The notes: generated from the letters alone by a model not told the origin. A DNA stretch of 64,000 nt from Candidatus Woesearchaeota archaeon (GCA_018653365.1 JABIAG010000003.1:158830-222829); one strand, 5' to 3'. Shown: positions 3,815-23,336, numbered from the stretch's first letter. A program made the numbers and translations.

Positions 3815-4312
3815 TTACTTTATTACTTTTAATTCAACCTCAATCATGTCATGGATCTCATTGAATAAGTAATTAGCATATTTTCTTAAGAATTTTGGTA
3901 ACATTTTTCCATATCTTGTTGGACGTAACTCGTTCTTTATTAGTTCAAACTTGTTTTTCTTTTCATAACTATAACTATCATGTCCGCGTACTATTTGTTC
4001 TATTGCTCTTCTATTAAAGTGGTGTTTGTGGGTTATGTCATTAAAGCTTAGGATACTTTTACAGTAAGGTACTCGAATTTGGATTAGGCATCCATTTTTC
4101 GCTATCCTGTGTAATTCTTCAATAACTTTTTCTGGGTCTTCTAGGTGTTCAAGTACATTATCAACAAGTATTAACTCAAAAGAATCAGCTTTAAGTGGAT
4201 AGGGAAATTTGTTAAAGTCAAATGATTTGTCAACGCCTTTGTGTTTTTGTAGGTCTACATTAACAAAACCTTCTTTTATTTTTATTCCGCAACCAAAATT
4301 TAATTTTTTCAT
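3815..4312 (-). CDS. class I SAM-dependent methyltransferase (type 11)
   Basis: KLNFGCG, NVLEHL, ELHRI...G....IRVP. Confidence 0.85.
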   Translation of the reverse strand: MKKLNFGCGIKIKEGFVNVDLQKHKGVDKSFDFNKFPYPLKADSFELILVDNVLEHLEDPEKVIEELHRIAKNGCLIQIRVPYCKSILSFNDITHKHHFNRRAIEQIVRGHDSYSYEKKNKFELIKNELRPTRYGKMLPKFLRKYANYLFNEIHDMIEVELKVIK

Positions 4313-5850
4313 TTTATTATTTTCAAAACCCATCTGTTTATTTTATATTCAAGATCAAGGTATTTAAAAAACTTCGTGTGCCAACGTAATTTTTCTACTA
4401 TTGCTATAAAGAAGTCTCTTTTCCCTTTCTTCTTTAATATCTCAATTAAGGAAGGCACAACAAATTGTGAGTAGTACGCATTTACAAATAGTACAAAGTC
4501 TTTATTTTTTATCCAGTTATAGCTATATACGTCACCATACCCTACCACGTGGTCTATATCTTTTTCTTCTGAGATGCTCCATCCATCTAATTTATCCGGT
4601 TCTTTAAATCCCATTTTTTTGCACTCTTCATAAAGTGTTGAACCAGGATATGGTCTAAATACTTGTGGACCGTTGAATGTTGCATCGGGACAAAGTTTTT
4701 TTATTGTTTTAACCAGTTTTAGGGTGTTTTTCATATCTTCTTTAGTTTCTCCAGGTAAACCGATCATGAATGAATAGAATGCACTTATGTTATGTTTGTT
4801 TAGTATTTTTGCTGAATTTTCAGTGTCTTCAACAGTTATGTCTTTTTTTAGTAGTTCTAAAATCCTGTTTGATCCTGATTCTGCTCCAAGTTTTAGATAA
4901 ACGCATCCACTCTTTTTGATTAGTTTTAGTAGATTTTCGTTAAGATGGGTTTCTTTGAATTCGCTTGCACGTACTGTGGTGCTCCATTTTATGTTTAATT
5001 TTCTTTCTATAATTCCTTCACATATTTCTTTAGCTCTTTTTTTATCTAAAAAAAAGTTTTCATCACGAAATATTATGAAGTCCATATCAAATTTGTTTTT
5101 GGCGTCTTCGAGTTCTTGCAAAACTCGTTTTGGGCTTTTCATTCTCCATTTTTGCCATCTTGGCAGTATGTTGTTTATGCAGAAGGTACAACTATGTGGG
5201 CATCCTCTCGAAGAGTTTATGGAAATGGTCTTTACTTTTTCTCTTTCAGGGAAAAATCTTTTATATGGCGCTTCTAAATATAATCTCATGTCTAATAATT
5301 CCCAGTTAGGAAGTGGACTATTCTCAATATCAACAAATGAGCAAGGGGGATTTATTATTACCTGTCCCTCTTTTTTATATGCTATTCCTCTTATGTCTGT
5401 TATGCTCTCTTTTTTTTGTAATCTTTTGGTAAGTTCGGTAAGTGTTTCTTCACCTTCATAGAGCACAACATAATCAATTAGGGGGTGTTCACAGCATTGT
5501 TTTGGATAAAGCGTTGGATGAACCCCGCCCCACACTATTTTTATTTCAGGATTTATCTTTTTAATTAATTCTGTAAGTTTAAGTGAACTTTTTATGCAGT
5601 CTGTCATAACCGAAAACCCGACAACGATTGCGTCTTTAAGTTCTTCTTTTATCTTCTTTATGTAATCCTCTCCAATTTGATGGTAAGCAAACACATCAAT
5701 AAATTTTACATTAATGTTTTCTTTAGAAAGCTCGGTTGCAATACTAAATAATCCCATGGGAATGTGAAATCTTTCAATTCCAACTTTTTTGAGTGGGTTA
5801 GGGGGAGCGTCTTCGCCTGCAATGGGGTTAATCAATACTACTTCTGCCAT
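4309..5850 (-). CDS. B12-binding radical SAM protein
   Basis: PMGL..IA, VWGGVHPT, EGEET, SRGCPHSCTFC (CxxxCxxC), GAESGS, IGLPGET. Confidence 0.92.
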   Translation of the reverse strand: MAEVVLINPIAGEDAPPNPLKKVGIERFHIPMGLFSIATELSKENINVKFIDVFAYHQIGEDYIKKIKEELKDAIVVGFSVMTDCIKSSLKLTELIKKINPEIKIVWGGVHPTLYPKQCCEHPLIDYVVLYEGEETLTELTKRLQKKESITDIRGIAYKKEGQVIINPPCSFVDIENSPLPNWELLDMRLYLEAPYKRFFPEREKVKTISINSSRGCPHSCTFCINNILPRWQKWRMKSPKRVLQELEDAKNKFDMDFIIFRDENFFLDKKRAKEICEGIIERKLNIKWSTTVRASEFKETHLNENLLKLIKKSGCVYLKLGAESGSNRILELLKKDITVEDTENSAKILNKHNISAFYSFMIGLPGETKEDMKNTLKLVKTIKKLCPDATFNGPQVFRPYPGSTLYEECKKMGFKEPDKLDGWSISEEKDIDHVVGYGDVYSYNWIKNKDFVLFVNAYYSQFVVPSLIEILKKKGKRDFFIAIVEKLRWHTKFFKYLDLEYKINRWVLKIIK

Positions 5851-5851
5851 T

Positions 5852-6949
5852 TTATTGATCACCAAATGTTGATTTATAAAGATTTCTTAACTTGTCTGAT
5901 ACATTCTCAATATCAAACTTTTTCTGGTATTCTTTGTTAAATTTTTGCATCTCTTTCATTTTTTTAGGATTTTTAAAAAGATAAACTATCTTTTGGGCAA
6001 TTTCTTTAGGATTCACTGAGTTAAGAAGCAAACCGTTAATTCGATCTTTGATTAGTTCATCATTTCCATGCCAGGGCGTACAGATCACGGTGGGTCCTGC
6101 GGTAATCGCTTCTAAGATAACATTGGAACATCCCTCTGTATGTGTGGTTGCCAATACAAATATTTCTGATCGTTTCATTTCTTTTATTGCTTGTTTATGT
6201 GCTAATCTTCCTGTAAATTTAACAACGCTCTCTAATTTCAGTTCTTTAACGATCTCTCTAACGTGCTTATCTTCTCCCTCTCTTCCACTTCCCACTATAT
6301 TAAGCGTGGTATCTGGAAATTCTTTAAGAATAACTGGGAGCGCTTCAACTATTTTGTCAACATTTTTTGATTTTCTTATAGTTCCAACATAGATTAGCGA
6401 GTGCTTTTGTGGTTTGTAAGGTTCTATGAAATCATTTAATACAATTCCATTTGGGATCACGTCTGTATTTGTAAACTTAAATTGTCTTGCAACATATTTT
6501 TTCATATAATTAGAAAGGGCTATGAATTTTGAGCACTTTTTAAGAATTATTTTTTTGATTATTTTTATGCACTTGCCTCCAAGAAAGACATCTTCTCCTC
6601 TACCATATACTATGTAAGGAATGTTTAAGAATTTTTTAGCTAAGTATCCAATTCCACATAATTCAATTTCTAAAATGAAGTCAGGGTTTATTTTTTTTAT
6701 TTTTTTTAACAGTTTTGAAAAATATATTAGAGTGCCAATTGTTGAGTCAGTTCTATTAACTCGAATTATTTTCAATCCAGTAAAGTCATTTTGGTTTTTG
6801 AGTTTCTCTTGAGTGAAGTGTGCTTTTTTCCTTGTCAATAGGTAAACTTCATCGCCTGCAGCAAGCATTTTACCAACATATTTATTGATGTTGATTGTTA
6901 TGCTATCAGCATTTCCTGAGAAGTGATTAGCATGTATCACAATTTTCAT
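5852..6949 (-). CDS. glycosyltransferase family 4
   Basis: VIPNGI, YVGTIRKSK, EGCSNVILEA; ATG at 6949 overlaps the upstream stop (ATGA). Confidence 0.9.
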   Translation of the reverse strand: MKIVIHANHFSGNADSITININKYVGKMLAAGDEVYLLTRKKAHFTQEKLKNQNDFTGLKIIRVNRTDSTIGTLIYFSKLLKKIKKINPDFILEIELCGIGYLAKKFLNIPYIVYGRGEDVFLGGKCIKIIKKIILKKCSKFIALSNYMKKYVARQFKFTNTDVIPNGIVLNDFIEPYKPQKHSLIYVGTIRKSKNVDKIVEALPVILKEFPDTTLNIVGSGREGEDKHVREIVKELKLESVVKFTGRLAHKQAIKEMKRSEIFVLATTHTEGCSNVILEAITAGPTVICTPWHGNDELIKDRINGLLLNSVNPKEIAQKIVYLFKNPKKMKEMQKFNKEYQKKFDIENVSDKLRNLYKSTFGDQ

Positions 6950-7752
6950 TTTATTGCTATTACCTCTATATGGGATCTTCCACTGGGAATTAAGAATCCC
7001 ATCAAGAACCAAAGTTTTCTTGACAAATAATTCAGTAATTTGTGATTTTTTAGTATTTTTCCTAGTTTAAACTGGTACTCATAGTGCACTACACTTTTTA
7101 ATTGGTATATTTTTTCATCAAGGGAGATGTGCTTTTCCTTTTTTATTTTAAAGCCCTCTTTTTTGAATAGGGCAACAACTTCTTTTAACATAAATAATCT
7201 TGAGTGTCTGTCAAAATAAGGTCTGCCTTTTGAGGAGTATCTTAAGGTATAGAACTTATCAACATTTCCATAAACACTTTTATGAAACCAGGGGTATATT
7301 CGTTTTTGTAGTGCTATTGCGTTAGGTACAGTACAAATAACGCTTCCGCCAGGTTTTAGCACTCGAAACATTTCTTTGATACACTCTCTTGGATGAAATA
7401 GGAAATGTTCCATAATCTCTGTAAAAATTACGTGATCAAAGGTATTATCTTTAAAGGGGAATTTGTCTCTTTCAGCATCTAGTTCAACCCACGCAAAGCC
7501 ATACTTTTGCATTCTTTCAGGGTAAGCTTGTTTTAAGTTTATTCCAGTTATTTCACATCCAATTTTAAGTAAGGCTATATCGATGTGTGCTCGTCCCATT
7601 CCTACATCTAAAACCTTGCTATTTTTTTTTATATTTTCTAGAATGCGAACATATCCTGGATGGCGAAGATTAAAATATTTTTCTTTCTCATCTTTTGTTA
7701 ATTCAGGAGTTATTGAACTTAATAGCTTTTTAGCTTCTTTTTTATCTACCAT
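6946..7752 (-). CDS. class I SAM-dependent methyltransferase
   Basis: VLDVGMG, FPFKDNTFD, EIMEH, RVLKPGG...TVPN. Confidence 0.9.
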   Translation of the reverse strand: MVDKKEAKKLLSSITPELTKDEKEKYFNLRHPGYVRILENIKKNSKVLDVGMGRAHIDIALLKIGCEITGINLKQAYPERMQKYGFAWVELDAERDKFPFKDNTFDHVIFTEIMEHFLFHPRECIKEMFRVLKPGGSVICTVPNAIALQKRIYPWFHKSVYGNVDKFYTLRYSSKGRPYFDRHSRLFMLKEVVALFKKEGFKIKKEKHISLDEKIYQLKSVVHYEYQFKLGKILKNHKLLNYLSRKLWFLMGFLIPSGRSHIEVIAIK

Positions 7753-7830: not shown

Positions 7831-8589
7831 TTATTGATTGATTTTTTCTTCTATTTTTTTTAGTAGAAGATGGTTTTTGGTCATATAAGCTATAACCCTT
7901 AACGGTTCATAAACTGCGTAGAATAAAACAAATATGTCTAATCTATTAATTGTAAATGCAATAATTAAGATTACAAATACCCATTTTCTTGGAATGTTTA
8001 AAACCAGCATACCTAATTTGAACATGGAAAACTTTTTCTTTTTGTGTTCTGTTACTTTTTCTTTTTCATAATTTGCTTTAAATAATGCTGCCTTTTTTAA
8101 TGTTGAAGCCATCCCAGCCATCATTGTAAAGAATGCAGTAATTCCGCCTGCCAGAATATAAATTGGGTTTCCAGTGTTTATGAAAACTCCCACGCCTATT
8201 CCTAAATAGTGAAGTGTAAACTCAGAGTGGTGGTAGAGGAGTGCGAGATACATTGATTGTATTCTTGTTGAGGTTTTTCTACATCTTGCCACAACTCCAT
8301 CGGCATAATCTATGCATTCTGCCACAAATAGCAAGATTATTGCTGTTAACGAGTACCAAAAAGTTCCTGCTGAAAATAGTCCTGCAGATAAGAATAACAC
8401 TATTGTTCCAAGAACTGTTACTTGGTTTGCGGTAATTGGGGTGTATAGTAATAATTTGGCGATTACAACACCACAACATCTTAGAACAGTATGTTGTATT
8501 TTAGTGAAGTTTAATTTTGTATTTCCTTTATTAAGCTCTTCATTCCGGCTAAACCCTTTTTCTATTACTTCCTTAAAGCTAATGCGCAT
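7831..8589 (-). CDS. CDP-alcohol phosphotransferase family protein, degenerate motif
   Basis: TANQVT and DYADGVVAR; second half of motif reads SMYLALLYH instead of GxxxDxxxD. Confidence 0.8.
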   Translation of the reverse strand: MRISFKEVIEKGFSRNEELNKGNTKLNFTKIQHTVLRCCGVVIAKLLLYTPITANQVTVLGTIVLFLSAGLFSAGTFWYSLTAIILLFVAECIDYADGVVARCRKTSTRIQSMYLALLYHHSEFTLHYLGIGVGVFINTGNPIYILAGGITAFFTMMAGMASTLKKAALFKANYEKEKVTEHKKKKFSMFKLGMLVLNIPRKWVFVILIIAFTINRLDIFVLFYAVYEPLRVIAYMTKNHLLLKKIEEKINQ

Positions 8590-8626
8590 ATTTTTATCAA
8601 TTCAAATATGGTTTATAAATTTATCC

Positions 8627-9145
8627 CTAGTTAACCTTTTCTTTCAAGAAGTGCAGTAGTTTTTCTACGCCCTCTTCAACACTTTCTTTATCCGTTTCTA
8701 TTACCACATCTGGATTTTCTGGTTCATGATACGGGGTGGTAATTCCAACAAAGTTGTCCCATACGCCCTCTCTGAACTTTTTATAGTTTCCTTGTGGGTC
8801 TCTTTCTTCACATTCTTTGATAGGACATTTTACGTAAGCCCAGTATATTTTATTTCCTGTTTGGATTGCATAATCTTTTGATTCCTTTGTTGCTGCTATT
8901 GCACTTGCAATGTTGATTATTCCGTTTTTTGTTAGTAAGTGGCATACATTTGCAATGGTTTGTCTTATCTTATGACGTTCTTCATCGCTATATCCCAGTT
9001 CGGGCAGTACCTCTTTTCGTATTACGTCTGCATCAATGATAACTATCTTTTTCCCTTCCTCTCGTAGTCTTTCTGCAAGTTTGTCTGCGATTGTTGTTTT
9101 TCCTGATCCACTTAATCCTGTTAACCATAATGTAAATGCTTTCAT
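8627..9145 (-). CDS. cysC: adenylyl-sulfate kinase homolog
   Basis: WLTGLSGSGKTT P-loop, DADVIR, ERDPQGNYKK, NFVGITTPY.EPENPD. Confidence 0.85.
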   Translation of the reverse strand: MKAFTLWLTGLSGSGKTTIADKLAERLREEGKKIVIIDADVIRKEVLPELGYSDEERHKIRQTIANVCHLLTKNGIINIASAIAATKESKDYAIQTGNKIYWAYVKCPIKECEERDPQGNYKKFREGVWDNFVGITTPYHEPENPDVVIETDKESVEEGVEKLLHFLKEKVN

Positions 9146-9690
9146 TTTGTTCCCCCAATTTTGTTTATTTCTTCATAAAATTCTGACCAATTATTCACTC
9201 GATTAAAACCCTCTTTATCTGTGTTATAAGGCCATGAAAATAAAAACTTATGTTTTACGTTTAAATCCTCTAGTAATTTTGCTGTGTCATCAATGTACAC
9301 ATCACATTCCTCGCATTTCTCTTTTTTTGAGCGGTCTTGTCCAACTCCTTCAAATAGGATTTCTACACCCTGTTCTTTTAGCCAAGTTCTAGCAATGTTC
9401 AACTTGTTATTTATTCTTGCGGTTACAACGCTTACGTTATGTCCATCTGCAATTAATTTTTTTATTGTTTCTATTGCTTCAGGTATTGCTTCCATGAATT
9501 TGGCATATTTTTCACTACTGGCTACTGTTTCTTGTAGTTCTCTGTAGTGTTCTAGGCTAATGACTCCGTTTAGTTTTGTTGCGTCACAGTTTTCTAGAGG
9601 GAGTTGTTTTCCGTACAGGTCTTCACACACTCTACTTTTTAATTTAGCCGAGTTGTGTATTACTCCGTCAAAGTCCAGTCCTATTTTCAT
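9142..9690 (-). CDS. HAD-superfamily hydrolase (NT5C-type nucleotidase-like)
   Basis: IGLDFDGV, VVTAR, YIDD, PYN, RVNNWSE. Confidence 0.85.
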   Translation of the reverse strand: MKIGLDFDGVIHNSAKLKSRVCEDLYGKQLPLENCDATKLNGVISLEHYRELQETVASSEKYAKFMEAIPEAIETIKKLIADGHNVSVVTARINNKLNIARTWLKEQGVEILFEGVGQDRSKKEKCEECDVYIDDTAKLLEDLNVKHKFLFSWPYNTDKEGFNRVNNWSEFYEEINKIGGTK

Positions 9691-9692
9691 TT

Positions 9693-10826
9693 TTAGTTCA
9701 ATGCTTCTTTTGTTAGGCTTTTTGCTACTTCTTCTCGCATTTGTTCTTTTGGGGGAGTTTCTCCCTCGCTGATCATTTTTCTCATTAACGTGCCACTTAC
9801 CTCAAACTTATGTGCGTCGCCATGGGGACAGGTTTTTTCACTTACTATGTGGTCACATTTTTTACAGTAGTGTGGTCTCATTAATTTCACTATTGTTATT
9901 CCTAACTTTTTGATTTCATCAAATATTTTGTGAGCATCGTATGTTTCATAATACCCTCCAACTCCTGCGTGATCGCCTCCAACAATGAAGTGAGAACAAC
10001 CATGATTTTTTCGGATTATTGCGTGGAATACTGCCTCTCTTGGTCCAGCATATCTCATTTGGGTTGTTAGTGCAGCCAACATAACTCTGTCTGAGGGGTA
10101 GTAATGTTCTATTAACGCTTCATATCCTTTAATTATTGCTTCCGGGCTGTAGTCCCCTTGTTTTTTCCAACCTATTAGTGGATGAACTAAAAGTCCATCT
10201 ACAAGTTCTAGTGCAGTTTTTTGAAGGTATTCGTGTGCTCTGTGGGGCACGTTTCTTGTTTGAAACCCGACAATTGTGTTCCACCCTCTTTTTTTGAATT
10301 CTTCTCTTGTTTGTAGGGGGGTTAATTCATACATTTCAACAATGGGGTCTGGCATGTTGATTAGTTCTACTTTTCCTGCAATACATGTTGTTCCACCATC
10401 ATGAAACTTTTTCACACCTGGATGTTCCATCTCAGTTGTTCTGTATAATTCTTGTGCTGTTTCTTCAAAGTTAAATGAAAATTTTTCATCATAACTTAAA
10501 ATTCCAATAAGTTTTTGATTTTCATCATATAATGCAACTCTTTGTCCTTCCTCAAAGTCTGTAGTCTCGGGTACTTGTAGTACTACGGGCATTGTCCAGG
10601 CTAATCCACTCTTCAAGCATTTGTTTTCGACAATAGAGTCAAAATCTTCTTTCCCAACAAACCCTGTTAGTGGACTGAATGTTCCTGTTGCAATGTTTGC
10701 AATATCCAGTACTGTTTCTTTATTGACTGTTAGTTTAGGTAACGTTTTAGCTTCTTCAATTGCTTCTTCACGTTCGTCTCCTTCTAAAACTTGATTAATT
10801 AATGTTCCTCCATGGGGCTCAATCAT
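9693..10826 (-). CDS. sat: sulfate adenylyltransferase homolog (GRD loop reads GGD)
   Basis: PHGGTL, FSPLTGF, FQTRNVPHRAHE, MRYAGPREA..HA..RKN.GC.HFIVGGDHAGVG, CxxC...CPH. Confidence 0.92.
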   Translation of the reverse strand: MIEPHGGTLINQVLEGDEREEAIEEAKTLPKLTVNKETVLDIANIATGTFSPLTGFVGKEDFDSIVENKCLKSGLAWTMPVVLQVPETTDFEEGQRVALYDENQKLIGILSYDEKFSFNFEETAQELYRTTEMEHPGVKKFHDGGTTCIAGKVELINMPDPIVEMYELTPLQTREEFKKRGWNTIVGFQTRNVPHRAHEYLQKTALELVDGLLVHPLIGWKKQGDYSPEAIIKGYEALIEHYYPSDRVMLAALTTQMRYAGPREAVFHAIIRKNHGCSHFIVGGDHAGVGGYYETYDAHKIFDEIKKLGITIVKLMRPHYCKKCDHIVSEKTCPHGDAHKFEVSGTLMRKMISEGETPPKEQMREEVAKSLTKEALN

Positions 10827-12510
10827 TTTTGTTTTCCTCTGCAAAGAAGTTTAAAACTTCTTTGACGTTATGTACTTCAATAAGATTAGTCATTTTTCTA
10901 TGATTTGGAAATACTGCACCATTAATTAAGATAGTATCATCCAATGAAATTAATTCTTGTTTTAGACATAAGTTAATTGCCATGCTTTTTTGGTTTGTTG
11001 AAACACTATTGTCGAGCTTTTCTGTAATAAGTACGGGAAACACACCCCACAATAATTTGATTTGTCTTTGAACTTTTTTATCGTGTGTTATCGCAATTAT
11101 GGGTGCTTTTGGTTTGTATCTTGCAATCATTCTTGCACTATACCCGCCGGATGTAAGGGATATTATTTTATCAACATCTCCTTCATTTACAATTTGTTTT
11201 ATGGATCTTGTAATGCTATCCGTTAGGTTACGTATTTTAATGCCTTCTTCGATTCCGTTAAAGTCTGCTTCATCTTCAACTGTGCTGATTACTCTTGTTA
11301 GGACTCGTATAGTTTCTAAGGGGTATGCTCCAACTGCAGTTTCTGCTGAAAGCATTAGTGCACTTGCACCATCTAGTACGGCATTGGCAATATCTGAGAC
11401 TTCGGATTTCTTTGGAACCGAGTTTTCAATCATAGAATCTAGTAATTGAGTTGCGATAATGATTGGTTTCCCTTGATTATTGCATTCGTTAATTATCTTT
11501 TTTTGAACTTTGGGTATTGTTTCTGGACTTGTTTCGCCCCCCAAGTCTCCTCTATCAATCATGATTCCGTAAGATTCTTCAATTATTTCTTTATAATTAT
11601 CTACGCCTCGTTGAGTTTCAATTTTGGCAATTACTTTAAGGTTATCTTCACCGATTGCGTTATTTATTTTTGTGATATGTCCTCTATTGTTAGTAAATGA
11701 AACTCCAATAAAGTCAAGATCGTTTTTTATTGCAAAGTTGATAAATTCCAGGTCTTTTTTTGTTAGTTCTTCATATTCTAATTGTAAGTCTGGCATGTGA
11801 AATCCTTTTCTGCTTTTGATAACGCCATCATTTAAAACCTCACAAATAATCAATTTGTTTTTAATTTCTTTAACTTTAAATCCTAAGTTTCCATCGTCAA
11901 TCATTATTTTGTTTGTGGGTTTTAGAATTTTGTGTATGTTAGTATAATTTACGGGTAGGGCCTCTTTAAAATTATCTTTGAAGTCAATATCTATGAAGCT
12001 AATCTCTTCTCCTTTTTTGATTTCAAGGTCTTGGGGTAGGTCTCCAAGACGAATTTTGGATCCTGGCATGTCTATTAGTATTGGGACATCTTGGGATGCA
12101 GTTCGTATGAGTTTGATTGCTTTTTCATGATCTTCAAAATCGCCATGCGATCCATTTATTCTGGCTACGTTCATTCCCTCATTTAACATTTGTTTAATTA
12201 TAAGGGGGTCTGCACAAGCAGGTCCTATTGTTCCAATTATCTTTGTTTTTTTGAAGTTATTTTTATCATTTAATGTTTTTAATTCAGAAAACATTGCATC
12301 TTTTGATGGATGCATTTGATTTAATTTGTATACTATTGAATTACCAAGCTTTTTGGCAATTAAAACTTTTTGTGATTTTAACTCTTGCATTATCTTATGA
12401 GCACTTCCCACACTTATGTTTAAGAGTCTTGCAATTTGGTTTACATTGACTGCGTGTTCTTTATTCTTATCGAAAAATTCTAAAATTTTTTTTTGGTTTT
12501 TTGTGATCAT
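10819..12510 (-). CDS. pyruvate-kinase-like protein with N-terminal winged-helix domain
   Basis: N-terminal VNVNQIARLLNISVGSAHKIMQEL (HTH); PK motifs KTKIIGTIGPA, ARIN.SHG, IAKIET, MIDRGDL, ATQLLDSM, MLSAETAVG.YP. Confidence 0.88.
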   Translation of the reverse strand: MITKNQKKILEFFDKNKEHAVNVNQIARLLNISVGSAHKIMQELKSQKVLIAKKLGNSIVYKLNQMHPSKDAMFSELKTLNDKNNFKKTKIIGTIGPACADPLIIKQMLNEGMNVARINGSHGDFEDHEKAIKLIRTASQDVPILIDMPGSKIRLGDLPQDLEIKKGEEISFIDIDFKDNFKEALPVNYTNIHKILKPTNKIMIDDGNLGFKVKEIKNKLIICEVLNDGVIKSRKGFHMPDLQLEYEELTKKDLEFINFAIKNDLDFIGVSFTNNRGHITKINNAIGEDNLKVIAKIETQRGVDNYKEIIEESYGIMIDRGDLGGETSPETIPKVQKKIINECNNQGKPIIIATQLLDSMIENSVPKKSEVSDIANAVLDGASALMLSAETAVGAYPLETIRVLTRVISTVEDEADFNGIEEGIKIRNLTDSITRSIKQIVNEGDVDKIISLTSGGYSARMIARYKPKAPIIAITHDKKVQRQIKLLWGVFPVLITEKLDNSVSTNQKSMAINLCLKQELISLDDTILINGAVFPNHRKMTNLIEVHNVKEVLNFFAEENKND

Positions 12511-12528
12511 TTTCAAATTACCTCACAT

Positions 12529-12696
12529 AAATGAATGCTTTTATCTAAAAATGAATGCTTTATTTATAAAGATTTCCTTTAGATCAAACATTCTTTATTC
12601 ATTTTTAAGAAAACTCTTTATGGGGCGGTCCATTCTTTGCTTAAAATGAATCGGTTCTATCTTTGGGGGAGTTCTCTGTTTTAAGAAAAAATGAAT
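12529..12696. promoter_or_regulatory. divergent promoter region with five AAATGAAT boxes
   Basis: AAATGAATGCTTT at 12529 and 12549 (20-bp period), an inverted copy ~12597-12604, further copies ~12644 and ~12689; TATA-like TTTATAAA at 12563 and TTTAAATA at ~12704. Confidence 0.55.
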
Positions 12697-12733
12697 CAAT
12701 ACCTTTAAATAACACTTTCCTCTTTTTTTTGTT

Positions 12734-13465
12734 ATGAAAATCTCAAATGCAGAGTTCAAAGAAAAGTGTTGGAGAGATTTGGATAAGATGACCTTCAGAT
12801 CTAAACTATTGCGTGTTTTATCTTTGCCAATAACAAAAGTCTTACTTTATTTTCCTGTTACTCCAAATCAAGTCACTTTTTTTAATATTCTTCTTAACTT
12901 TTTACGGTTATGGCTTTTTGCTACTGGTAATGCAGTTAACATTTTAATTGGAGCACTATTGTTAATTTTCAGTGAAGTTCTTGATCGTGTTGATGGGGGA
13001 ATCGCAAGGTGTAAGAACATTAAGTCCATGAGGGGTAGTTTTTTTGATGATTCTTTTCATGATTTTTTATTTTTAACTACATTTATTGGTATTGGTATTG
13101 GGGTTTTTGTTAACACAGGTAATTTAATCTATCTTTATTCTGGTTTTATCGTGGGAATATTATTTGTTCTTGCTCAGAACTTGTTTGCTCATAGAAAGAA
13201 CATTTTATACAAGAAGTCTTCAGACCCAAAAAAGTATATTTATCGTAAGCTTTTTCCGAAACGTGGATTAATTGATCATATCAAACAAGTAATTTATTCT
13301 ATCTTTCTTTATTTAACTTATATTCTTGTTGTGATGGCCGTGTTGAACTTATGGTTTAATATATTGCATTATTATATATTATTTTATGCGGCGTATTCTA
13401 TCTTCTACTTTTGTGTTAATTTTTACTACTTATCTAGTTTTAAAGAAGATAAACGAGAAAACTAA
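12734..13465 (+). CDS. CDP-alcohol phosphotransferase family protein (His at last motif position)
   Basis: TPNQVT, DRVDGGIAR...GSFFDDSFH; shares GIG.GVF.NTGN.IY with 7831..8589. Confidence 0.85.
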   Translation: MKISNAEFKEKCWRDLDKMTFRSKLLRVLSLPITKVLLYFPVTPNQVTFFNILLNFLRLWLFATGNAVNILIGALLLIFSEVLDRVDGGIARCKNIKSMRGSFFDDSFHDFLFLTTFIGIGIGVFVNTGNLIYLYSGFIVGILFVLAQNLFAHRKNILYKKSSDPKKYIYRKLFPKRGLIDHIKQVIYSIFLYLTYILVVMAVLNLWFNILHYYILFYAAYSIFYFCVNFYYLSSFKEDKREN

Positions 13466-14226
13466 TCGTTCTTTTTTTCATAAAAGTTGGCTTCCGAATC
13501 TTTTTTTAGTGTTTTTATTTGTAATGCAAAGAAAACAATAAATAAGATTGCTAATAATGATATTCCGAGAATAAATGCCCAATGAATAAGTTTTAATCCA
13601 AAGAATACTGCCAGAATCGGCGCGATAAAGAAGATTATTGCATTTGTTTCTACATCAGTATATCCCAATCTAATTCTTCTTTTTGAGAGGAATACTTTTA
13701 CTTTTGAGATTAAAGACCTTTCATTTAGGGTTACTTTTTTCATTAGCACTTTATTACCATTAATTACGTACGAGCGTAAATACAATACATGGATCAGTAG
13801 TACAATGATTACATAAATTCCTGACAATGCAAGGGTTAGTAGGTTTCCGGTTGCAGAATAAACATAATACCCTAATGATAGAGATATTCCAATGATCATT
13901 AACAGGTCTACAAAAGCATCCGTGATTCTCCCAACGTTAGATTTCAGGTTTTTTAGTTGAGCAACTCTTCCATCTACAAGATCAAATATTAAAAATATTT
14001 GAGATAGTATTGCTCCAGTAATTAAATGCCCTGTTGCGAATGCAAGTGCGGATGTTAGCGCGAATAAAATAAAACTTAGAACTGTTATGTTTGTAGGGGT
14101 TAGTTTTGTGAAGTTTGCCATAAACCAAATCACTGGCTTGGCGAGGTGCTCAATAAGTAAGACATCCCAGATATCATTTTCTTTTTTAAGTCCTTTTTCA
14201 TTTATTTCTTTGAATGTGTATTTCAT
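13462..14226 (-). CDS. CDP-alcohol phosphotransferase family protein (near-canonical motif)
   Basis: TPTNIT, DLVDGRVAQ...GRITDAFVD. Confidence 0.85.
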   Translation of the reverse strand: MKYTFKEINEKGLKKENDIWDVLLIEHLAKPVIWFMANFTKLTPTNITVLSFILFALTSALAFATGHLITGAILSQIFLIFDLVDGRVAQLKNLKSNVGRITDAFVDLLMIIGISLSLGYYVYSATGNLLTLALSGIYVIIVLLIHVLYLRSYVINGNKVLMKKVTLNERSLISKVKVFLSKRRIRLGYTDVETNAIIFFIAPILAVFFGLKLIHWAFILGISLLAILFIVFFALQIKTLKKDSEANFYEKKND

Positions 14227-14243
14227 TTTTTTAATCACAACTT

Positions 14244-15401: not shown

Positions 15402-16450
15402 TTGTATGCCTCTGAGTATTTTTTTGCTACAACAGTCCAAGAATAATTTTTTATTATGTATTCTCTGCATTTTTTTCTTAATCCTTCTGCTTTTTTTTGC
15501 ATTTCTTTTAATGCGTTTACTAATTCAGCTAAGCTTCCTGGTTTAACCTTTATTCCCACTGTGTTGTCTATTACATCTCTCATTCCACCAATGTTGCTTC
15601 CGATAACAGGGGTTCCACAACTTAATGCTTCTAGTGTAACAAATCCAAATGGTTCTTTTAGTGAAGGAATAACTAGGACGTCTGCTTCAGAATAGTAATT
15701 GGGTAATTCAGATTGTGGTTTTTTGCCTAAGAATTCACAGTTAATCTTCGAGTCATTAGCCAGTTTCTTTAATTGCATTTCTTTATCACCACTCCCAATG
15801 ATCTTAAGGCAGTAATCATAATTTAATTTAGAACAAGCAGTAATTAGTTTGTTAATACCTTTTTCTTTTGATAACCGTCCAACATATAGAATTCGTAACT
15901 TTTCTGACTTTGTATGTTTCTTTGGTGAAAATAGTTCCGTATCAACACCATTACTGATAACTTTGATCTCTCTTTTTATTCCAAGCTTCTCTAGTTCGTT
16001 CTTTGCTTGGGTTGTTAGGGTTGTTACAGTTTTAGCATTTCTTAAGAGCTTTTTCCCATATAGGTGATATGCTATTTTGATTATTGTCGGTATCTTCTCT
16101 ATCCTTTGGGTTAATACTAAATTTTTGAGTTTTCTTAATTGCCATCCCATTGGCATAAACCATTCTTGTAAATGTATTGCATCAAAGTTTTCTTTTTCAA
16201 TCTTTTTTTTCAATCCCCTTAATTTTAACATGCCTTTTCTTTTTATGCCGCAACTATTTAGTCTAATCACTCTTACGTTTTTTAATTTACTTCCTTCAGT
16301 TATCTTTCTTACTTTTCCATATCGTGGTACAGAAAATTTACTAACATAAATTGTGATTTCATGACCTAATTTCGTTAAATTATCTGCTAGGTAATACTCA
16401 TTTCCTTTTTCTCTTTCATCATAAAATGCAGTTATTAGTGCAATCTTCAT
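15398..16450 (-). CDS. glycosyltransferase family 4
   Basis: NGVDTELF, YVGRLSKEKG, PSLKEPFG.V.LEA. Confidence 0.92.
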   Translation of the reverse strand: MKIALITAFYDEREKGNEYYLADNLTKLGHEITIYVSKFSVPRYGKVRKITEGSKLKNVRVIRLNSCGIKRKGMLKLRGLKKKIEKENFDAIHLQEWFMPMGWQLRKLKNLVLTQRIEKIPTIIKIAYHLYGKKLLRNAKTVTTLTTQAKNELEKLGIKREIKVISNGVDTELFSPKKHTKSEKLRILYVGRLSKEKGINKLITACSKLNYDYCLKIIGSGDKEMQLKKLANDSKINCEFLGKKPQSELPNYYSEADVLVIPSLKEPFGFVTLEALSCGTPVIGSNIGGMRDVIDNTVGIKVKPGSLAELVNALKEMQKKAEGLRKKCREYIIKNYSWTVVAKKYSEAYK

Positions 16451-17175
16451 TTTTTCTCCATTATAACATACCAACCATTAACCATTCTGTGTGGCAGTAC
16501 ATTAGCTATTTTTTGATCAACCTTTTCCAGCAGTCTTCTTAGAGGTGTATGGAAGAATAGTTGGTTTATTGGAAACGTTCCTAATATGAAGCAATGGTTT
16601 TTTATCTTTCTTATTTTTAGTCCTGCCTTATTTGCTAATTTTTTTAGTTGTTTTATTCTGAACTTTTGTATGTGTGGGTTATCATAATTTGCTGTGAACA
16701 TACCTTCGTTTGTTTTTGTTTTACTTTTTAGTTTTGTTGTTTTTCTTGTTCGAGTTATTAATCTTCCAATAATTTCGCTTGATCCATATCCATTTGGGAC
16801 TGTGATGATTGCCCACTTTTTTGTAACTCTTGAAATTTCTTTTAACATACTTTCAGGATTTTGTAAATGTTCTAGTACTTGAATGTTTAACACCACATCA
16901 TATTTTTCTTTTTCTTCTTTTATGTCTTTTACTTCAAAACTTACATTGGGTAGTTTGTTTCTTTTTTTTGCAATTTCGATTGATGCTTTATCTACGTCTA
17001 TGCCTCTTATTTTTTTAGCAACTAGTCCTGTTGGAATTGTAATTGATCCCGTTCCACAACCAACATCTAAAATGCTGGCATTATTAATCTTTTTTATGAA
17101 ATCAGTTACGAACTTTAACCTATTTATTCCTCCTACATCGTCTTGTACATTGGTATGTTTTAGAAAAGCGTTCAT
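16447..17175 (-). CDS. class I SAM-dependent methyltransferase
   Basis: ILDVGCGTG, VLEHL..P, ITVPN. Confidence 0.9.
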   Translation of the reverse strand: MNAFLKHTNVQDDVGGINRLKFVTDFIKKINNASILDVGCGTGSITIPTGLVAKKIRGIDVDKASIEIAKKRNKLPNVSFEVKDIKEEKEKYDVVLNIQVLEHLQNPESMLKEISRVTKKWAIITVPNGYGSSEIIGRLITRTRKTTKLKSKTKTNEGMFTANYDNPHIQKFRIKQLKKLANKAGLKIRKIKNHCFILGTFPINQLFFHTPLRRLLEKVDQKIANVLPHRMVNGWYVIMEKK

Positions 17176-18281
17176 TTTACCTCTTTTAATACTTCTTCTA
17201 CCTTTATTTTTTTCATACACTTTCGTTTTAGTTTTTGATTGCAGTGATCGTAAAGTCCACAAGGGCTACATTCTTCATGTTTGCTGATTACTGTGCAATT
17301 TTTGTATGCTTTCCATCTTTTAATGTTTGTGGGTCCCATCAATTCTATTGTTTTTGCTCCAACGATTGAAGCTAGATGCATTCCTCCGGAATCGCATCCA
17401 ATTACATACTTTGCTTTTGTCATTAAAGCTCCAACTTCATTTAGATCTTTTCCAAGAAATTCAAGGGGTTTTGTTCGTGCATATTTCATTACACTTAATA
17501 CATTTTTATCTCCTTTTGCTCCTGATAGAATTACTTGATATTTCAAGTTTAGTTTATCAACAAGTTCGATCCATTTTTCTAATTCCCATTCTTTTGTCGG
17601 ATACCCTGCTGAAGGTAAAATAACAATGATTTCTTTTTCAACTTTTTCTAGTACTACTTCAAGTTTCTTATATTCTTCTTTTCCTATTTCAAGTTTATAT
17701 TTTGCATCGGTTCCACCAATTGCTTTGGCTAGTTCCAAGTTGTTTTCTACTTCGTGTTTATCAAGAAACTTAATTGGGTGGGTTAATAGATACTCTCCCC
17801 CAGTTATTCCATATCCTGCTCGTAATGGTGCTTTGCTTTTATAAACTAGTAAGAGTATGTTTCTCAGGTCCCCCCTTAAATCTATTGCCAAATCATATTG
17901 TGATTTTTTTAATTTTTTAATTAATTTAAAGTATGTTTTGATGTCATTCCAATCAAGTTTGAATCCATATCTTATCCAAGGAACATCATATTCGATTAAA
18001 TTGTCATAATCATAGTTATATTTCCATACTTCTTTGAATTTTGAATTGATTACTACATCAATTTGAGCTTTTGGGTATGCTTTTCTTATTGATTCTATTG
18101 CTGGAAAGCTGATTAATGTGTCTCCCAGATAGCCAAAGTCCACAATTAATATCTTTTTAATTTCACTAAGAGAAATGCTTCTCTTGTTTTCAAACAGTTT
18201 GCAAGCGGGGTGGATTGTTTTTAGTATTCCATCAACTATCGCAACGGCTTTTCCTCTTTTCTTATTTATTATCTTATTCAT
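17172..18281 (-). CDS. glycosyltransferase family 9 (heptosyltransferase-like)
   Basis: GYLGDTL...PAI..IR..YP.A.ID, HEVE, KEW....W, DSG.MHLA..VG..T..L.GPT. Confidence 0.88.
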   Translation of the reverse strand: MNKIINKKRGKAVAIVDGILKTIHPACKLFENKRSISLSEIKKILIVDFGYLGDTLISFPAIESIRKAYPKAQIDVVINSKFKEVWKYNYDYDNLIEYDVPWIRYGFKLDWNDIKTYFKLIKKLKKSQYDLAIDLRGDLRNILLLVYKSKAPLRAGYGITGGEYLLTHPIKFLDKHEVENNLELAKAIGGTDAKYKLEIGKEEYKKLEVVLEKVEKEIIVILPSAGYPTKEWELEKWIELVDKLNLKYQVILSGAKGDKNVLSVMKYARTKPLEFLGKDLNEVGALMTKAKYVIGCDSGGMHLASIVGAKTIELMGPTNIKRWKAYKNCTVISKHEECSPCGLYDHCNQKLKRKCMKKIKVEEVLKEVK

Positions 18282-19800: not shown

Positions 19801-20466
19801 TCATAGGTTAAATAACTTCCACTTTATTAAGTTTAGTACTATTTTTATGCCATCAACTGTTGTTGTGCCTTTGTATTTATCCCCATATATTGTTGTTATG
19901 GGAATTTCGCAGTAGTTGATATTATTTCTTCCTGCTCTTGCAATCATCTCTGATTCCATTGAATAATCATTAGCTTGCCATCGAATCTTTTTATATGTTT
20001 CTGATGTGAATGCTCTAAACCCTGATTGTGTGTCTCGTAAGTTTATTCTATAAAGGAGTTTGGTAATCTTGTCTATTGCAAAATTTCCTGCTCTGAATAT
20101 GAAGGGCATATTTTTTGAGGGAATTCTATAGCCAAATACTAAGTCTTTTTCTTTTAGTTTTGTAATAAAATTTGGAATCAGTTTTGGTTCATGTTGTCCG
20201 TCTGCATCCATTACAATGATGTGTTTTGCTCCTCGACTTATTGCATAATCACATCCGGTTTTTAATGCTGCACCTTTACCTAAATTTGTTATGTGTCTTA
20301 ATACTGTAACTTTTTCAGTTTTTGCTATTTTAGAAGTTGAGTCTTTGCTGCCATCATCAACGAGGATTATATTTTTTACATAAGTCTTAACATCTTTTAG
20401 TACTTTTCCGATGTGTTTCTCTTCGTTGTGTGCTGGAATGACAACGAAGGTTTCATTCGGTTCCAT
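19801..20466 (-). CDS. GT2 polyprenol-phosphate glycosyltransferase (DPM1-like)
   Basis: VVIPAHNEE, VDDGS.D, N.GKG.A, MDADGQH, DTQSGFRA. Confidence 0.92.
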   Translation of the reverse strand: MEPNETFVVIPAHNEEKHIGKVLKDVKTYVKNIILVDDGSKDSTSKIAKTEKVTVLRHITNLGKGAALKTGCDYAISRGAKHIIVMDADGQHEPKLIPNFITKLKEKDLVFGYRIPSKNMPFIFRAGNFAIDKITKLLYRINLRDTQSGFRAFTSETYKKIRWQANDYSMESEMIARAGRNNINYCEIPITTIYGDKYKGTTTVDGIKIVLNLIKWKLFNL

Positions 20467-23305
20467 TGCCCTCTTTACTTGCCTCTTCTTTTAATCGTGT
20501 TTGAACTTGACATTGCCAATCTACTTTGTAAACATATATTTTGCCCCCAGTTATTTGGGTTTGTTCATCAAATTTCTCAAAACAGTTTAATCCATTTCCA
20601 TTATTGAAAAACATTCTTGTGAACATGCTGCTAGATAATAATGGATCAGTAGCCATGGCTTGATACTCTTCACCTTTTTTTATTACGGTTATGCCTACGC
20701 TAATTCCTGAGTTATTGTATTCTTTTTGTGTAATGATTCCCTCCTCAAAGTAAGCAAACTTTTTTGGTGTTAGTTTGTCTTGAGTGGTTGTTTGAGCATA
20801 GATTTCTTTGCTAGTTGTGTTTAAAATGAATGGAATCTTTTGATTGCCCACTCCTTGAATACATTGATATATGGTAGGTTCTATTTCACTGCATGTTTTT
20901 AATCCTGATGCGTATCCAGGCCATCTTGATATCCATTGATTTGGGTCTTGGGTTGTTATATCATCATAGTATTTCATTGATTGTTCTTCACTTAGTTCGA
21001 ATTGAGTTTGTAAAATAGTTAGGCTTTCAGATTCTGTTTTTCCTTTTAGCTCTCGTACCATTGATGCTTTTTCAAAGTCCCAGCTCCCAAAGTGGCCCCA
21101 CACTCCTGCTTTTCCAACCATGTCTTCTGAGGCTATAACGAATGCTTCGGGGGGCGCACAGTGTGTAAGGGTTAAGATTTCTTCAACTTCATTTTCAGAA
21201 AATTCATTTGATTCAAGTAAGTTCTTTGCACCAGTTTCATCTTGTAAGATTATGTTTTTAATAAGTAAAATGGAGTTGAAATCATTTTTTAATTTATCAT
21301 TTATTTTATCATAAGCCCCGTTACCGCCACAATCCAGCATTCTTATTATTGCAAATGCTTCTTTTTCATCAGATGTTAAGAGTAATTTTCCTACCCAATG
21401 CGCTTTTGGCGAGTTTTGAGATGCACCATCAAAGTTGGTTCCTCGGTCTGCTGCGTATTTAAACCAGTGTCCAAAGTCCCACCAGGAGGTAATAATTGCG
21501 TTTTCTTCTGAGCTTTCTTTTATGTTTGTTAATGAAGTCCACCATGCATCATTCATTGAGGGAATTTCGTTAACTGCTTGATTCCATCCTGCTTTTGCAG
21601 GTGCAACTAATAATCCAATTGCTAGTAATATGAATATTATGTTTATTAGCCCTTTGCTTATGTCTAGTTGAGCGGGCAGTGTCTTTTTTGCATAATTGTA
21701 AATGATGCCTATAAATGCGCCTATCGCAATACTAAATGCCGGAACTAATAATAATGTAAATCTTAATCCTTTTGTTGAACCATAAATTGCGCCAACAAAC
21801 CATAATGTTAAAAATATTGCATATTTTAGATCCCGTTTTCCATTCTCTTTTTTAACAACAGTTAAGATGATTCCAACAACAGCAATAAAGAATAAGAATC
21901 CACCCCCTATTGCACCAATTGTTGATTCAACGGATGCAGGGTTTAGTTCTGCTACGGTGGTTAACACATTAGGCCAGATTGTTCCCAGGGCAACTTCTTT
22001 TATTTGAATGATGCTCAGTGGGAAGTTTAAGAATGCATAGAAAAATTGTTGTATTCCTCTAACAAATCCACTTTTAAAAAGTATGGCAACACTTAACATT
22101 GCAGCGAAGAAGAATGGAACTGCTGATATTATGAGGTCTTTTAGTGTTGTTTTTGTCTCTTTTTTTGTTTTTGAATTCATAATTAGTTTTATGATTCCAT
22201 AGATTATTATTGTTGCAATTATAAAGTCAAATATGTACCACCATCCTGACCAGAATCTTGAATATAGTCCAACCAAAAGTCCAGAACCTATACCTAACCA
22301 TAATTTGGTTTTAGTTTTCTTTGCTTCAAATGCACCTATAAACAGCCAGGCAATCATTAGTGGAAAAAACACGTTATATGGGTCTGTATCAGCAAATCCT
22401 GCTACTGTTCTTGTCATAAATGCAGTATGTACTGCTAGCAAAGATGCTCCCGCTGTTGCCCCTAAGTTTCCTGCGACTTTTTTTATTAAGAAAAAGCAGG
22501 GAATTATGGCAAGGGTCGCTATTATTAATGGCACGTAAAAAATAGCCTTCATAATATCTTTATTTCCAAAGGCTCGTGAAATTTTGAAAGTTATATAATT
22601 TACATAATTGTGATAATTGTTATCTGGTGCTTTTTTGCTTGGGGCGTTCTTTTTTGTTTCATATGATATTCCGTTTTCTTTTACATCTCCAAGATGTCCA
22701 TTTTCATCAAGATTTCTTGCATATCTTGCATAATAATATGGGTCGATCGCAATTAAGTATGTTTGTCCATTATCATTTTGTAATCTTGATTTGTATGCCT
22801 TCCTGTATCCTTCAATTGCTTCATTATAAGGAAGTTGCTCTAACTGGCCATTTCCTGGAGCAAAGACCTTGTCTTGAAGTTTAAGTTTTTTATATTCTTC
22901 TTCTATGAGTCTTTGTTTGTTTTCTTGTGGTAAACTTGGAAACTGTGCGTTTATTGATTGAGAGATAACATTCATGTTAAAGTTGTCAATGCTGTTTTCT
23001 GCCCATTGTTCGGTTATAGGCAAATAGGCAGGTTGTATTCTAAAAAATATGCTAAGAAATATGGGAATTAATATTAATAGAATAATTCCATATTTTTTTG
23101 TAAACTTTTTGGTTTCTTTATACCCTTTTTTGATTGTTTCTTTTACGTCTTTTAAATCTAGTTCATCTTCGGTGGATTCTTTACTTTCTTTTTTATCTTT
23201 TGAAAAGAAGTTTTTGAATCCTGCTTTTATTTTTGAGAAGTCTATATTTACTTCTTCGTCTTCTATTTTTTCTTCTTGAGATTTGGATTTTTCGTTTTCT
23301 TCCAT
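20453..23305 (-). CDS. aglB: oligosaccharyltransferase AglB/STT3
   Basis: AIDPYYY, RT.AGFADTD, TVAE, RF, SWWDFGH. Confidence 0.95.
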   Translation of the reverse strand: MEENEKSKSQEEKIEDEEVNIDFSKIKAGFKNFFSKDKKESKESTEDELDLKDVKETIKKGYKETKKFTKKYGIILLILIPIFLSIFFRIQPAYLPITEQWAENSIDNFNMNVISQSINAQFPSLPQENKQRLIEEEYKKLKLQDKVFAPGNGQLEQLPYNEAIEGYRKAYKSRLQNDNGQTYLIAIDPYYYARYARNLDENGHLGDVKENGISYETKKNAPSKKAPDNNYHNYVNYITFKISRAFGNKDIMKAIFYVPLIIATLAIIPCFFLIKKVAGNLGATAGASLLAVHTAFMTRTVAGFADTDPYNVFFPLMIAWLFIGAFEAKKTKTKLWLGIGSGLLVGLYSRFWSGWWYIFDFIIATIIIYGIIKLIMNSKTKKETKTTLKDLIISAVPFFFAAMLSVAILFKSGFVRGIQQFFYAFLNFPLSIIQIKEVALGTIWPNVLTTVAELNPASVESTIGAIGGGFLFFIAVVGIILTVVKKENGKRDLKYAIFLTLWFVGAIYGSTKGLRFTLLLVPAFSIAIGAFIGIIYNYAKKTLPAQLDISKGLINIIFILLAIGLLVAPAKAGWNQAVNEIPSMNDAWWTSLTNIKESSEENAIITSWWDFGHWFKYAADRGTNFDGASQNSPKAHWVGKLLLTSDEKEAFAIIRMLDCGGNGAYDKINDKLKNDFNSILLIKNIILQDETGAKNLLESNEFSENEVEEILTLTHCAPPEAFVIASEDMVGKAGVWGHFGSWDFEKASMVRELKGKTESESLTILQTQFELSEEQSMKYYDDITTQDPNQWISRWPGYASGLKTCSEIEPTIYQCIQGVGNQKIPFILNTTSKEIYAQTTTQDKLTPKKFAYFEEGIITQKEYNNSGISVGITVIKKGEEYQAMATDPLLSSSMFTRMFFNNGNGLNCFEKFDEQTQITGGKIYVYKVDWQCQVQTRLKEEASKEGNGTE

Positions 23306-23336
23306 TTTTTGTTTAGTGATATTCAAGAACTGGAAA

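Follow-up and report, generated by a model that had tools for sequence, protein, structure and literature searches.

The closest described systems for making 3'-phosphoadenosine 5'-phosphosulfate (PAPS) are the bifunctional PAPS synthases, such as those of Aquifex aeolicus (2gks) and human (PAPSS1, 1x6v), in which ATP sulfurylase (Sat) and adenosine 5'-phosphosulfate (APS) kinase (CysC) lie on one chain, and the separate ATP sulfurylase and APS kinase of Methanothermococcus thermolithotrophicus (8a8d, 8a8h). To our knowledge, a pyruvate kinase (PK) partner has not been described for any PAPS synthase, and a literature search found no paper on a natural link between PK and PAPS synthase or on a PK-Sat fusion. 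In vitro, PAPS generation has been combined with ATP regeneration by PK and phosphoenolpyruvate (PEP), which removes ADP, restores ATP, keeps APS kinase from being trapped and raises the PAPS yield (PMC9885120). Here we describe an operon in a 64,000-nucleotide stretch from Candidatus Woesearchaeota archaeon (GCA_018653365.1, JABIAG010000003.1:158830-222829), hereafter the window, in which genes for PK, Sat, a HAD phosphatase and CysC lie together. It is well supported that this operon belongs to a widespread module of PAPS synthesis linked to PK, of which it represents a split form with a winged helix. We consider it probable that the four genes provide an ordinary PAPS supply for surface-glycan sulfation, in which a dedicated PK would use PEP to regenerate ATP and remove ADP. 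The features concerned are as follows.

7831-8589, minus strand: CDP-alcohol-phosphotransferase-like membrane protein A (PF01066, 20.6 bits, below the cut-off of 22)
8627-9145, minus strand: CysC, APS kinase (TIGR00455, 165.2 bits against a cut-off of 138.7)
9142-9690, minus strand: HAD phosphatase of the NT5C (5'(3')-nucleotidase) family (PF06941, 60.1 bits)
9693-10844, minus strand: Sat, ATP sulfurylase with PUA_2 and ATP-sulfurylase domains (TIGR00339, 383.1 bits against 322.95; NF003166, 493.9 against 387)
10819-12516, minus strand: winged-helix PK, 565 residues (PF00224, 310.9 bits; PF02887, 90.6; TIGR01064, 458.5 against 306.4)
12517-12733, no strand: divergent intergenic region of 217 bp with clustered repeats, identified by repeat counts
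12734-13465, plus strand: CDP-alcohol-phosphotransferase-like protein B, divergent from the PK gene (Pfam, 44.3 bits against a cut-off of 22)
13462-14238, minus strand: CDP-alcohol phosphotransferase C, with an ATG at 14226 (Pfam, 42.0 bits against a cut-off of 22)

The start of the Sat gene overlaps the end of the PK gene, and overlaps among the four core genes run from 4 to 26 nt (8 nt at the PK/Sat junction if Sat begins at its ATG). The genome (G000), that of a DPANN archaeon, comprises 1.09 Mb in 3 contigs, with 33% G+C and ~95% completeness, and its relatives carry names such as Woesearchaeota and Nanoarchaeota. A preliminary description, made from the sequence alone, had placed four tightly coupled genes between CDP-alcohol phosphotransferase paralogs in a glycosylation island, with three S-adenosylmethionine (SAM) methyltransferases nearby, and had singled out the motifs MIDRGDL and DMPGSKIR in PK, VGGDHAG in Sat, and SAIAAT and ERHKI in CysC. 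The open reading frames bear out this layout, the three methyltransferases were located (coordinates below), and all five motifs occur in the translations. Profile searches of the window for a sulfotransferase or PAPS reductase found neither, in agreement with the same description.

Linkage and fusion of pyruvate kinase with sulfate activation

In every locus examined that encodes a relative of the winged-helix PK (L003, L004/5/6, L007, L008 and L010), the gene order was PK, Sat, CysC; the L010 contig ends inside Sat, with CysC there outside the data. Some of these genes are fused: L003 encodes a PK-Sat fusion and a HAD-CysC fusion, and L009 a PK-Sat fusion. We then tallied PK and Sat in an evenly drawn, order-level sample of 201 genomes (this tally and the 401-genome winged-helix tally below each include one unpublished genome, G132 and G354 respectively, on which no conclusion depends). 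PK was patchy (73/201) and Sat was rare (10/201). PK was adjacent or fused to Sat in 6 of the 10 Sat-bearing genomes, while two were too fragmented to tell and two carried Sat and CysC with no PK nearby. The six included two triple fusions of PK barrel, Sat and CysC, 913-914 residues long, and two PK-barrel-Sat fusions of 750 residues.

When the triple fusion was used as a database query, all clusters among the matches listed (120/120) had PK and Sat domains, and most of these also had an APS kinase domain. Their hosts are DPANN archaea and candidate phyla radiation (CPR) bacteria (such as Paceibacterota, Parcubacteria, Yanofskybacteria and Sungbacteria), and the proteins are annotated in databases as either 'sulfate adenylyltransferase' or 'pyruvate kinase'. 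The regulatory C domain has been lost from the fused PK barrels, in which a DTEGSQ(I/V)R motif is found. The fusion family also includes P0217 and P0130, a 1019-residue protein joining an NTP_transferase/IspD-like part to PK-Sat and a 1341-residue PK-Sat-CysC form.

Stand-alone PKs with Asp in place of the Ala of xARGDL (Asp-type or D-type, described below) adjoined Sat in 3 of the 5 cases sampled, one of them in an Omnitrophica bacterium; two others, L012 and P0051, had no Sat nearby. The module is recognised by its place in a glycan locus and by a gene for a D-type PK immediately preceding that for Sat, in most cases accompanied by CysC, and this is the arrangement found in the window.

Sequence features of the operon-encoded proteins

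The barrel and C-terminal domains of the window PK exceeded the curated cut-offs of Pfam and NCBIfam (TIGR01064), and its N-terminus, about the first 85-90 residues, is a winged helix with weak HTH_11 and HTH_24 matches. We examined the catalytic and ligand-binding set, namely Arg, Asn and Ser of RxNxSH, Asp of DxxG, Lys and Glu of KIE, Asp of RGD, Thr of ATQ, and Ser and Glu of SxE. The catalytic residues aligned with those of the S. aureus and Geobacillus PK structures (3t05, 2e28), and R119, N121, D149, R156, K298, E300, D324, T356, S390 and E392 were invariant in alignment A1. Where canonical PKs read MVARGDL and DTKGPEIR, the window PK reads MIDRGDL and DMPGSKIR. Both MIDRGDL and D(I/L/M)PGxKIR are conserved across a clade of ~560-residue PKs with an N-terminal winged helix. 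Among the matches listed, 58/120 of the closest PKs and 112/120 of the fused PK domains had the Ala-to-Asp change of xARGDL, and so did the whole winged-helix clade. In 11 canonical PKs of the same archaeal order, one of them from the family mate G108, the corresponding motifs are M(V/I)ARGDL and a Glu-containing DTKGPEIR type. DMPGSKIR was considered as a mark of altered chemistry and set aside, since the motif is clade-wide and its Lys, at the position of Glu117, is an established hallmark of K+-independent PKs.

Phylogenetic analysis (FastTree, 160 PK domains, midpoint-rooted) placed the full-length Asp-type PKs (xDRGDL) in one clade of 58 tips with a support of 0.976. Nested in it was the winged-helix subclade that holds the window PK (support 0.998). 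The barrel-only fused PKs formed a separate clade (support 1.0), and all canonical PKs, DPANN ones included, fell apart from both Asp-type groups. Because canonical PKs of the same order have other motifs and form a separate clade, the window PK is, judged by its sequence, a special enzyme rather than a housekeeping one. It is also the sole PK match in its genome. The preliminary description had raised the idea that PKs of the IDRGDL type form a clade occurring with sat and cysC in glycan loci, and this is what we observed.

The winged helix belongs to a large DPANN family. Its relatives form the N-termini of proteins of about 195-260 residues in 183 of the 401 genomes sampled from the phylum, and apart from the window's genome only G339 has it at the head of a PK-length open reading frame. 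In the window, the region between the PK gene and the protein B gene (12517-12733) contains AAATGAATGCTTT twice, 20 bp apart, together with 4 of the window's 6 copies of AAAATGAAT. These four copies fall within 150 bp, where ~0.01 would be expected from the window-wide rate. The region is a candidate operator for the winged helix of PK, and autoregulation by this protein is plausible.

The best solved relative of the window Sat was the ATP sulfurylase of M. thermolithotrophicus (8a8d, 375.5 bits). The window protein contains the QTRN..HRAH motif of ATP sulfurylases, shares the QTRNVPH form with 8a8d, and also matches 8a8d at FQTRNVPHRAHE. Because 8a8d also reads QTRNVPH, only the GRD-to-GGD loop change is unusual in the window Sat. 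GGD was found in the window, L003 and L010 (3 of the 8 module Sats), and GRD in the other five as well as in 8a8d and 1v47. No second Sat was found in the window's genome.

CysC has an intact P-loop, GLSGSGKTT, and aligned end to end with 7yq0 and 5cb6; 2yvu and 8a8h were further relatives in the PDB. Its substrate-side motifs deviate, with DAD for DGD and IAAT for ISP(Y/T). Among the six module CysCs these deviations were confined to the window genome, and the other five kept DGD and I/A-SP. The region of ERHKI is variable even across solved archaeal APS kinases. The deviations of Sat and CysC were also considered as a signature of the pathway, and this was set aside since they are not common across the module.

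The HAD protein carries DFDGV, corresponding to the catalytic DxD motif of the family, and a sequence search of the PDB gave a single marginal match, 2obb. The slot beside CysC is filled by different phosphatases in different loci: HAD/NT5C in the window and L003, a CysQ-like Inositol_P protein in L004, and a PHP protein in L007 and L027. The use of three unrelated families in this slot would fit a common need, removal of 3'-phosphoadenosine 5'-phosphate (PAP). The HAD protein is a candidate PAP 3'-phosphatase, which we consider its most likely role, and a pyrophosphatase role is also possible.

Sulfotransferases and the surrounding glycosylation island

Elsewhere in the window's genome, on contig C1, we detected one canonical sulfotransferase, P0125 (Sulfotransfer_3, 39.8 bits; Sulfotransfer_1, 29.9 bits). 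It lies at about G000:C1 221286-222176 (L020:9287-10177), with an RfaE-II-like nucleotidyltransferase gene just before it (TIGR02199, 157.8 bits, below the cut-off). No PAPS reductase was found in this genome. The only PAPS_reduct-family match, also on C1, was rejected as a PAPS reductase and is a TtuA/NcsA-like tRNA thiolase. As no PAPS or APS reductase was found in the window's genome, the PAPS would be used for sulfation rather than assimilation. The preliminary description had pointed to a separate canonical pyk or a sulfotransferase as genes that the genome might hold; the former was not found, and the latter is P0125. The congener G193 (96% complete) lacks PK, Sat and a homolog of P0125.

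Among related loci, the L024 operon contains PK-Sat, CysC and a Sulfotransfer_1 gene (95.3 bits), and a TauE-type anion transporter gene stands beside the module in L027. No canonical sulfotransferase match was obtained in G013 or G059. Because these two genomes and G339 (detailed below) lack such matches, non-canonical sulfate-transfer enzymes may exist in this group. Genes of the alkaline phosphatase superfamily (Phosphodiest or Sulfatase) were found beside PK-Sat(-CysC) in L021:11844-15154 (G013), L025:11047-12855 (G059) and L011:9413-10582, and their products are candidate alternative sulfate-handling enzymes. In G032, two CDP-alcohol-phosphotransferase-like genes lie within 4 kb of a canonical Sulfotransfer_1 gene (C2:31990-36579), ~65 kb from a PK-Sat-CysC triple fusion on the same contig.

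Proteins A, B and C are the only members of the CDP-alcohol phosphotransferase family in the window's genome. We compared them with the PF01066 signature, D1xxD2G1xxAR...G2xxxD3xxxD4. Protein A keeps DxxDGxxAR and has Ser for G2, Ala for D3 and His for D4; protein B reads DRVDGGIAR..G..D...H, its fourth Asp being replaced by His; protein C matches the signature in full, all four Asp residues included, except for AQ in place of AR. The NCBIfam equivalog scores of these proteins were 30-55 bits against cut-offs of 170-180. L003 and both copies in L010 share the His of protein B without exception. Across operon-linked copies, H, G, N, D and S were all found at the fourth-Asp position, and the His type occurs in at least seven Sat-less genomes.

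A gene of this kind lies within ~5 kb of PK-Sat-CysC in the window, L003, L004, L007, L008, L009 and L010 (7/7 loci of this type). In the 201-genome sample, the subfamily was present in 5 of 10 Sat-bearing and 26 of 191 Sat-less genomes (odds ratio 6.3; Fisher p 0.009, uncorrected for relatedness), so that 26 of its 31 carriers were without Sat. Relatives in L047 and L048 had no Sat within 10 kb. No such gene was seen in the stretches of L021-L027 examined (only 3 kb in L023), and members of the subfamily occur elsewhere in the genomes G013, G032, G094 and G200. An ortholog of protein A is retained in G193, the congener without Sat (34% identity, E 1e-45). Since most carriers lack Sat, G193 retains the protein A ortholog and the fourth-Asp residue varies, these proteins probably serve a decoration step of their own, with which the operon merely shares the N-glycosylation island, and are unlikely to use PAPS. 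Nucleotidyltransferase genes, possible suppliers of ordinary donors, are present in most such islands. The association of these genes with the operon that the preliminary description had noted holds for the local neighbourhood in this lineage; the subfamily as a whole is found mostly in Sat-less genomes.

The surroundings of the operon are an N-glycosylation island, because glycosyltransferases (GT4, GT2 and GT9), a flippase, methyltransferases and the oligosaccharyltransferase AglB/STT3 surround it; a B12-binding radical-SAM enzyme is encoded there too. The methyltransferases and the oligosaccharyltransferase are located as follows.

3815-4333: SAM methyltransferase, first of the three near the operon
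6946-7752: SAM methyltransferase, second
16447-17262: SAM methyltransferase, third
20453-23326: oligosaccharyltransferase AglB/STT3

The nearest named relatives of the B12-binding radical-SAM enzyme (4309-5865, minus strand) are BchE, HpnJ and PhpK-type P-methyltransferases, all far under their cut-offs, and its presence may hint at a methylated phosphonate or phosphate decoration. The island also encodes a 133-residue RfaE-domain-II/TagD-like nucleotidyltransferase (302-703, minus strand) and a GT9 heptosyltransferase-family enzyme (17172-18281, minus strand), which together suggest a donor of the ADP-heptose or CDP-glycerol type. A tRNA match of 113 nt (32858-32970, minus strand, 39.7 bits) probably represents a gene with an intron. 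In the related glycan locus L008, an 895-residue UDP-glucose/GDP-mannose dehydrogenase (L008:16438-19125) is interrupted by an intein, with weak or faint Intein_splicing and LAGLIDADG_3 matches.

Alternative explanations and relation to known systems

In the mechanism that we propose, Sat would convert ATP and sulfate to APS, and CysC would convert APS to PAPS with release of ADP. The D-type PK would use PEP to turn this ADP back into ATP, which would keep ATP high and prevent ADP from trapping APS kinase in a dead-end APS-ADP complex. PEP could be supplied through enolase, which is present in the genome (G000:C2:67987-68796, 398.7 bits, with one TGA inside the open frame). The sulfate would most likely be passed on by the canonical sulfotransferase on contig C1, the NT5C-type HAD protein would most likely clear the by-product PAP to AMP, and the winged helix of PK probably recognises the repeats in the promoter region of its own gene. 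This reading is favoured because Sat and CysC pass the equivalog cut-offs of sulfate enzymes and because the L024 operon holds a canonical Sulfotransfer_1 gene.

Several points weigh against it. No CysC was seen near PK and Sat in L011, L025 and L033, and because these loci show no ADP-making step, the PK-Sat core may call for more than ATP regeneration. The Ala-to-Asp change, which adjoins the Mg-binding Asp in Sat-linked PKs, is not explained by ATP regeneration either; together with the CysC-less loci, it makes a more specific role of PK in sulfate activation possible. The window PK, as the genome's only PK with enolase present, may double as a glycolytic enzyme. With DAD and loss of SP in CysC, and GGD in Sat, activity or specificity could differ. 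The Pfam match of P0125 is modest and its gene is unlinked to the operon, and G339, which has the same operon as the window, gave no match to PF00685, PF13469 or PF03567; the negative result for Sulfotransfer_2 is weak, as that search matched no control genome either. Finally, the gene identities, linkage, fusions, clades and phyletic patterns are observed, and from them we infer the enzymatic activities, the PAP-phosphatase role, the PAPS-consuming protein and the regulatory role of the winged helix.

The first two of these points are the basis of a different explanation, in which the role of the D-type PK goes beyond regenerating ATP. The enzyme would instead couple PEP cleavage energetically to APS formation, as a counterpart of the CysN GTPase, or act on a substrate other than pyruvate and PEP. 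In the fusions, PK is always joined to Sat and never to CysC, which is optional, and the fused barrels dispense with the regulatory C domain and have their own DTEGSQ(I/V)R motif. However, D-type PKs keep all the catalytic residues for PEP and ADP and also occur with no Sat nearby, and no such chemistry is known to us for the PK fold. We regard this explanation as unlikely. The fuller version, in which Sat-linked Asp-type PKs are such coupling partners, driving the unfavourable step of sulfate activation, or other-substrate enzymes, and the winged-helix form of this lineage is in addition a trigger enzyme repressing its own operon, appears slightly less likely again; if true, it would mean that the smallest cells energise sulfate activation in a novel manner. 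The idea that PK merely serves glycolysis in this organism, and that its place next to sat is a historical accident without functional meaning, draws on its being the genome's only PK, on the enolase and on the retained catalytic residues and C domain. It does not account for the recurrence of PK-Sat adjacency or fusion across DPANN, CPR, Omnitrophica and other bacteria, for the overlap of the two genes in the window, for the separate clade of the same-order canonical PKs or for the absence of both PK and Sat from G193, and is strongly disfavoured.

Two further proposals concern what is transferred. The His-variant CDP-alcohol-phosphotransferase-like membrane proteins might be sulfotransferases, with PAPS or APS as the nucleotide-anhydride donor and His as catalytic base. 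PAPS transfer and CDP-alcohol transfer would be formally alike, and the neighbourhood of the operon, the enrichment in Sat-bearing genomes and the G339 result all fit. Nevertheless, we consider this very improbable in view of the many Sat-less carriers, including those of the His type, the G193 ortholog, the varying fourth-Asp residue, the loci where one of the two partners was not seen, and the nucleotidyltransferases in most islands. The lead proposal of the preliminary description was a route like that of O-methyl phosphoramidate (MeOPN), in which PK makes a phosphoramidate- or thiophosphate-like species, Sat adenylylates it, CysC 3'-phosphorylates it and the CDP-alcohol phosphotransferases transfer it. 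MeOPN synthesis in Campylobacter jejuni (Cj1415-Cj1418) uses a glutamine kinase of the PEP-synthase/PPDK type, a cytidylyltransferase, a glutaminase-type hydrolase and a CysC-like kinase. The substrate-side deviations in PK, Sat and CysC are real, and methyltransferases are nearby. On the other hand, Sat and CysC score as sulfate enzymes, QTRNVPH matches 8a8d, the deviations of Sat and CysC are not common across the module, the PK motifs are clade-wide and occur also without Sat, the phosphatase slot is filled by exchangeable families, and the sister operon L024 has a canonical sulfotransferase. The 'same logic' claimed for the two pathways extends to the CysC-like step and no further, as the other MeOPN families are absent from the locus, where the remaining three genes are PK, Sat and HAD. 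To this route we give the least credence of all. The conservative alternative in the same description, PAPS synthesis with ATP regeneration, is the one we adopt, with the amendment that its 'new sulfotransferase class' is not needed, given the canonical sulfotransferase in the genome.

PK-linked PAPS synthesis appears to be widespread, with more than 100 fusion protein clusters in DPANN archaea and CPR bacteria and a split form in the window. In recent genome surveys of ultra-small symbionts, K00873 'pyruvate kinase' is counted as a source of ATP from glycolysis, and one of these surveys puzzled over a patchy PK in genomes unable to make PEP by glycolysis (bioRxiv 10.64898/2026.05.13.725050; PMC12361377). 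Part of the PKs counted in this way may belong to a surface-glycan sulfation module. Our reading predicts sulfated glycans on the cell surfaces of DPANN archaea and CPR bacteria. It would also provide a natural design for PEP-driven PAPS production, a system that biocatalysis assembles by hand (PMC9885120).

Compared with known systems, the neighbouring proteins resemble CDP-alcohol phosphotransferases (PF01066; e.g. archaetidylinositol-phosphate synthase and IPCT-DIPPS) in that B and C pass the Pfam cut-off and all three have D1xxD2GxxAR (AQ in C); they differ in the His for the fourth Asp in A and B, the missing G2 and D3 in A, and their location in a glycan island. With C. jejuni MeOPN synthesis, the locus has in common a CysC-like 3'-kinase and glycan-locus methyltransferases, whereas the kinase, nucleotidyltransferase and hydrolase families differ. 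The PK-Sat and PK-Sat-CysC fusions of DPANN and CPR share with the window the same three activities in the same order, the Asp in xARGDL and the glycan-locus context. In contrast to these fusions, the window genes are separate but overlapping, and its PK has a C-terminal domain, a winged helix and Lys in DxPGxKIR, while the fused barrels have Gln in DTEGSQ(I/V)R and a clade of their own. The bifunctional PAPS synthases and the separate M. thermolithotrophicus enzymes belong to the same families as the window Sat and CysC and have the same expected product; to these the window adds a dedicated D-type PK, a winged helix and a HAD phosphatase. The in-vitro PAPS mixture follows the same logic with a commercial PK in an engineered system (PMC9885120), whereas in the window the coupling appears to be naturally encoded.

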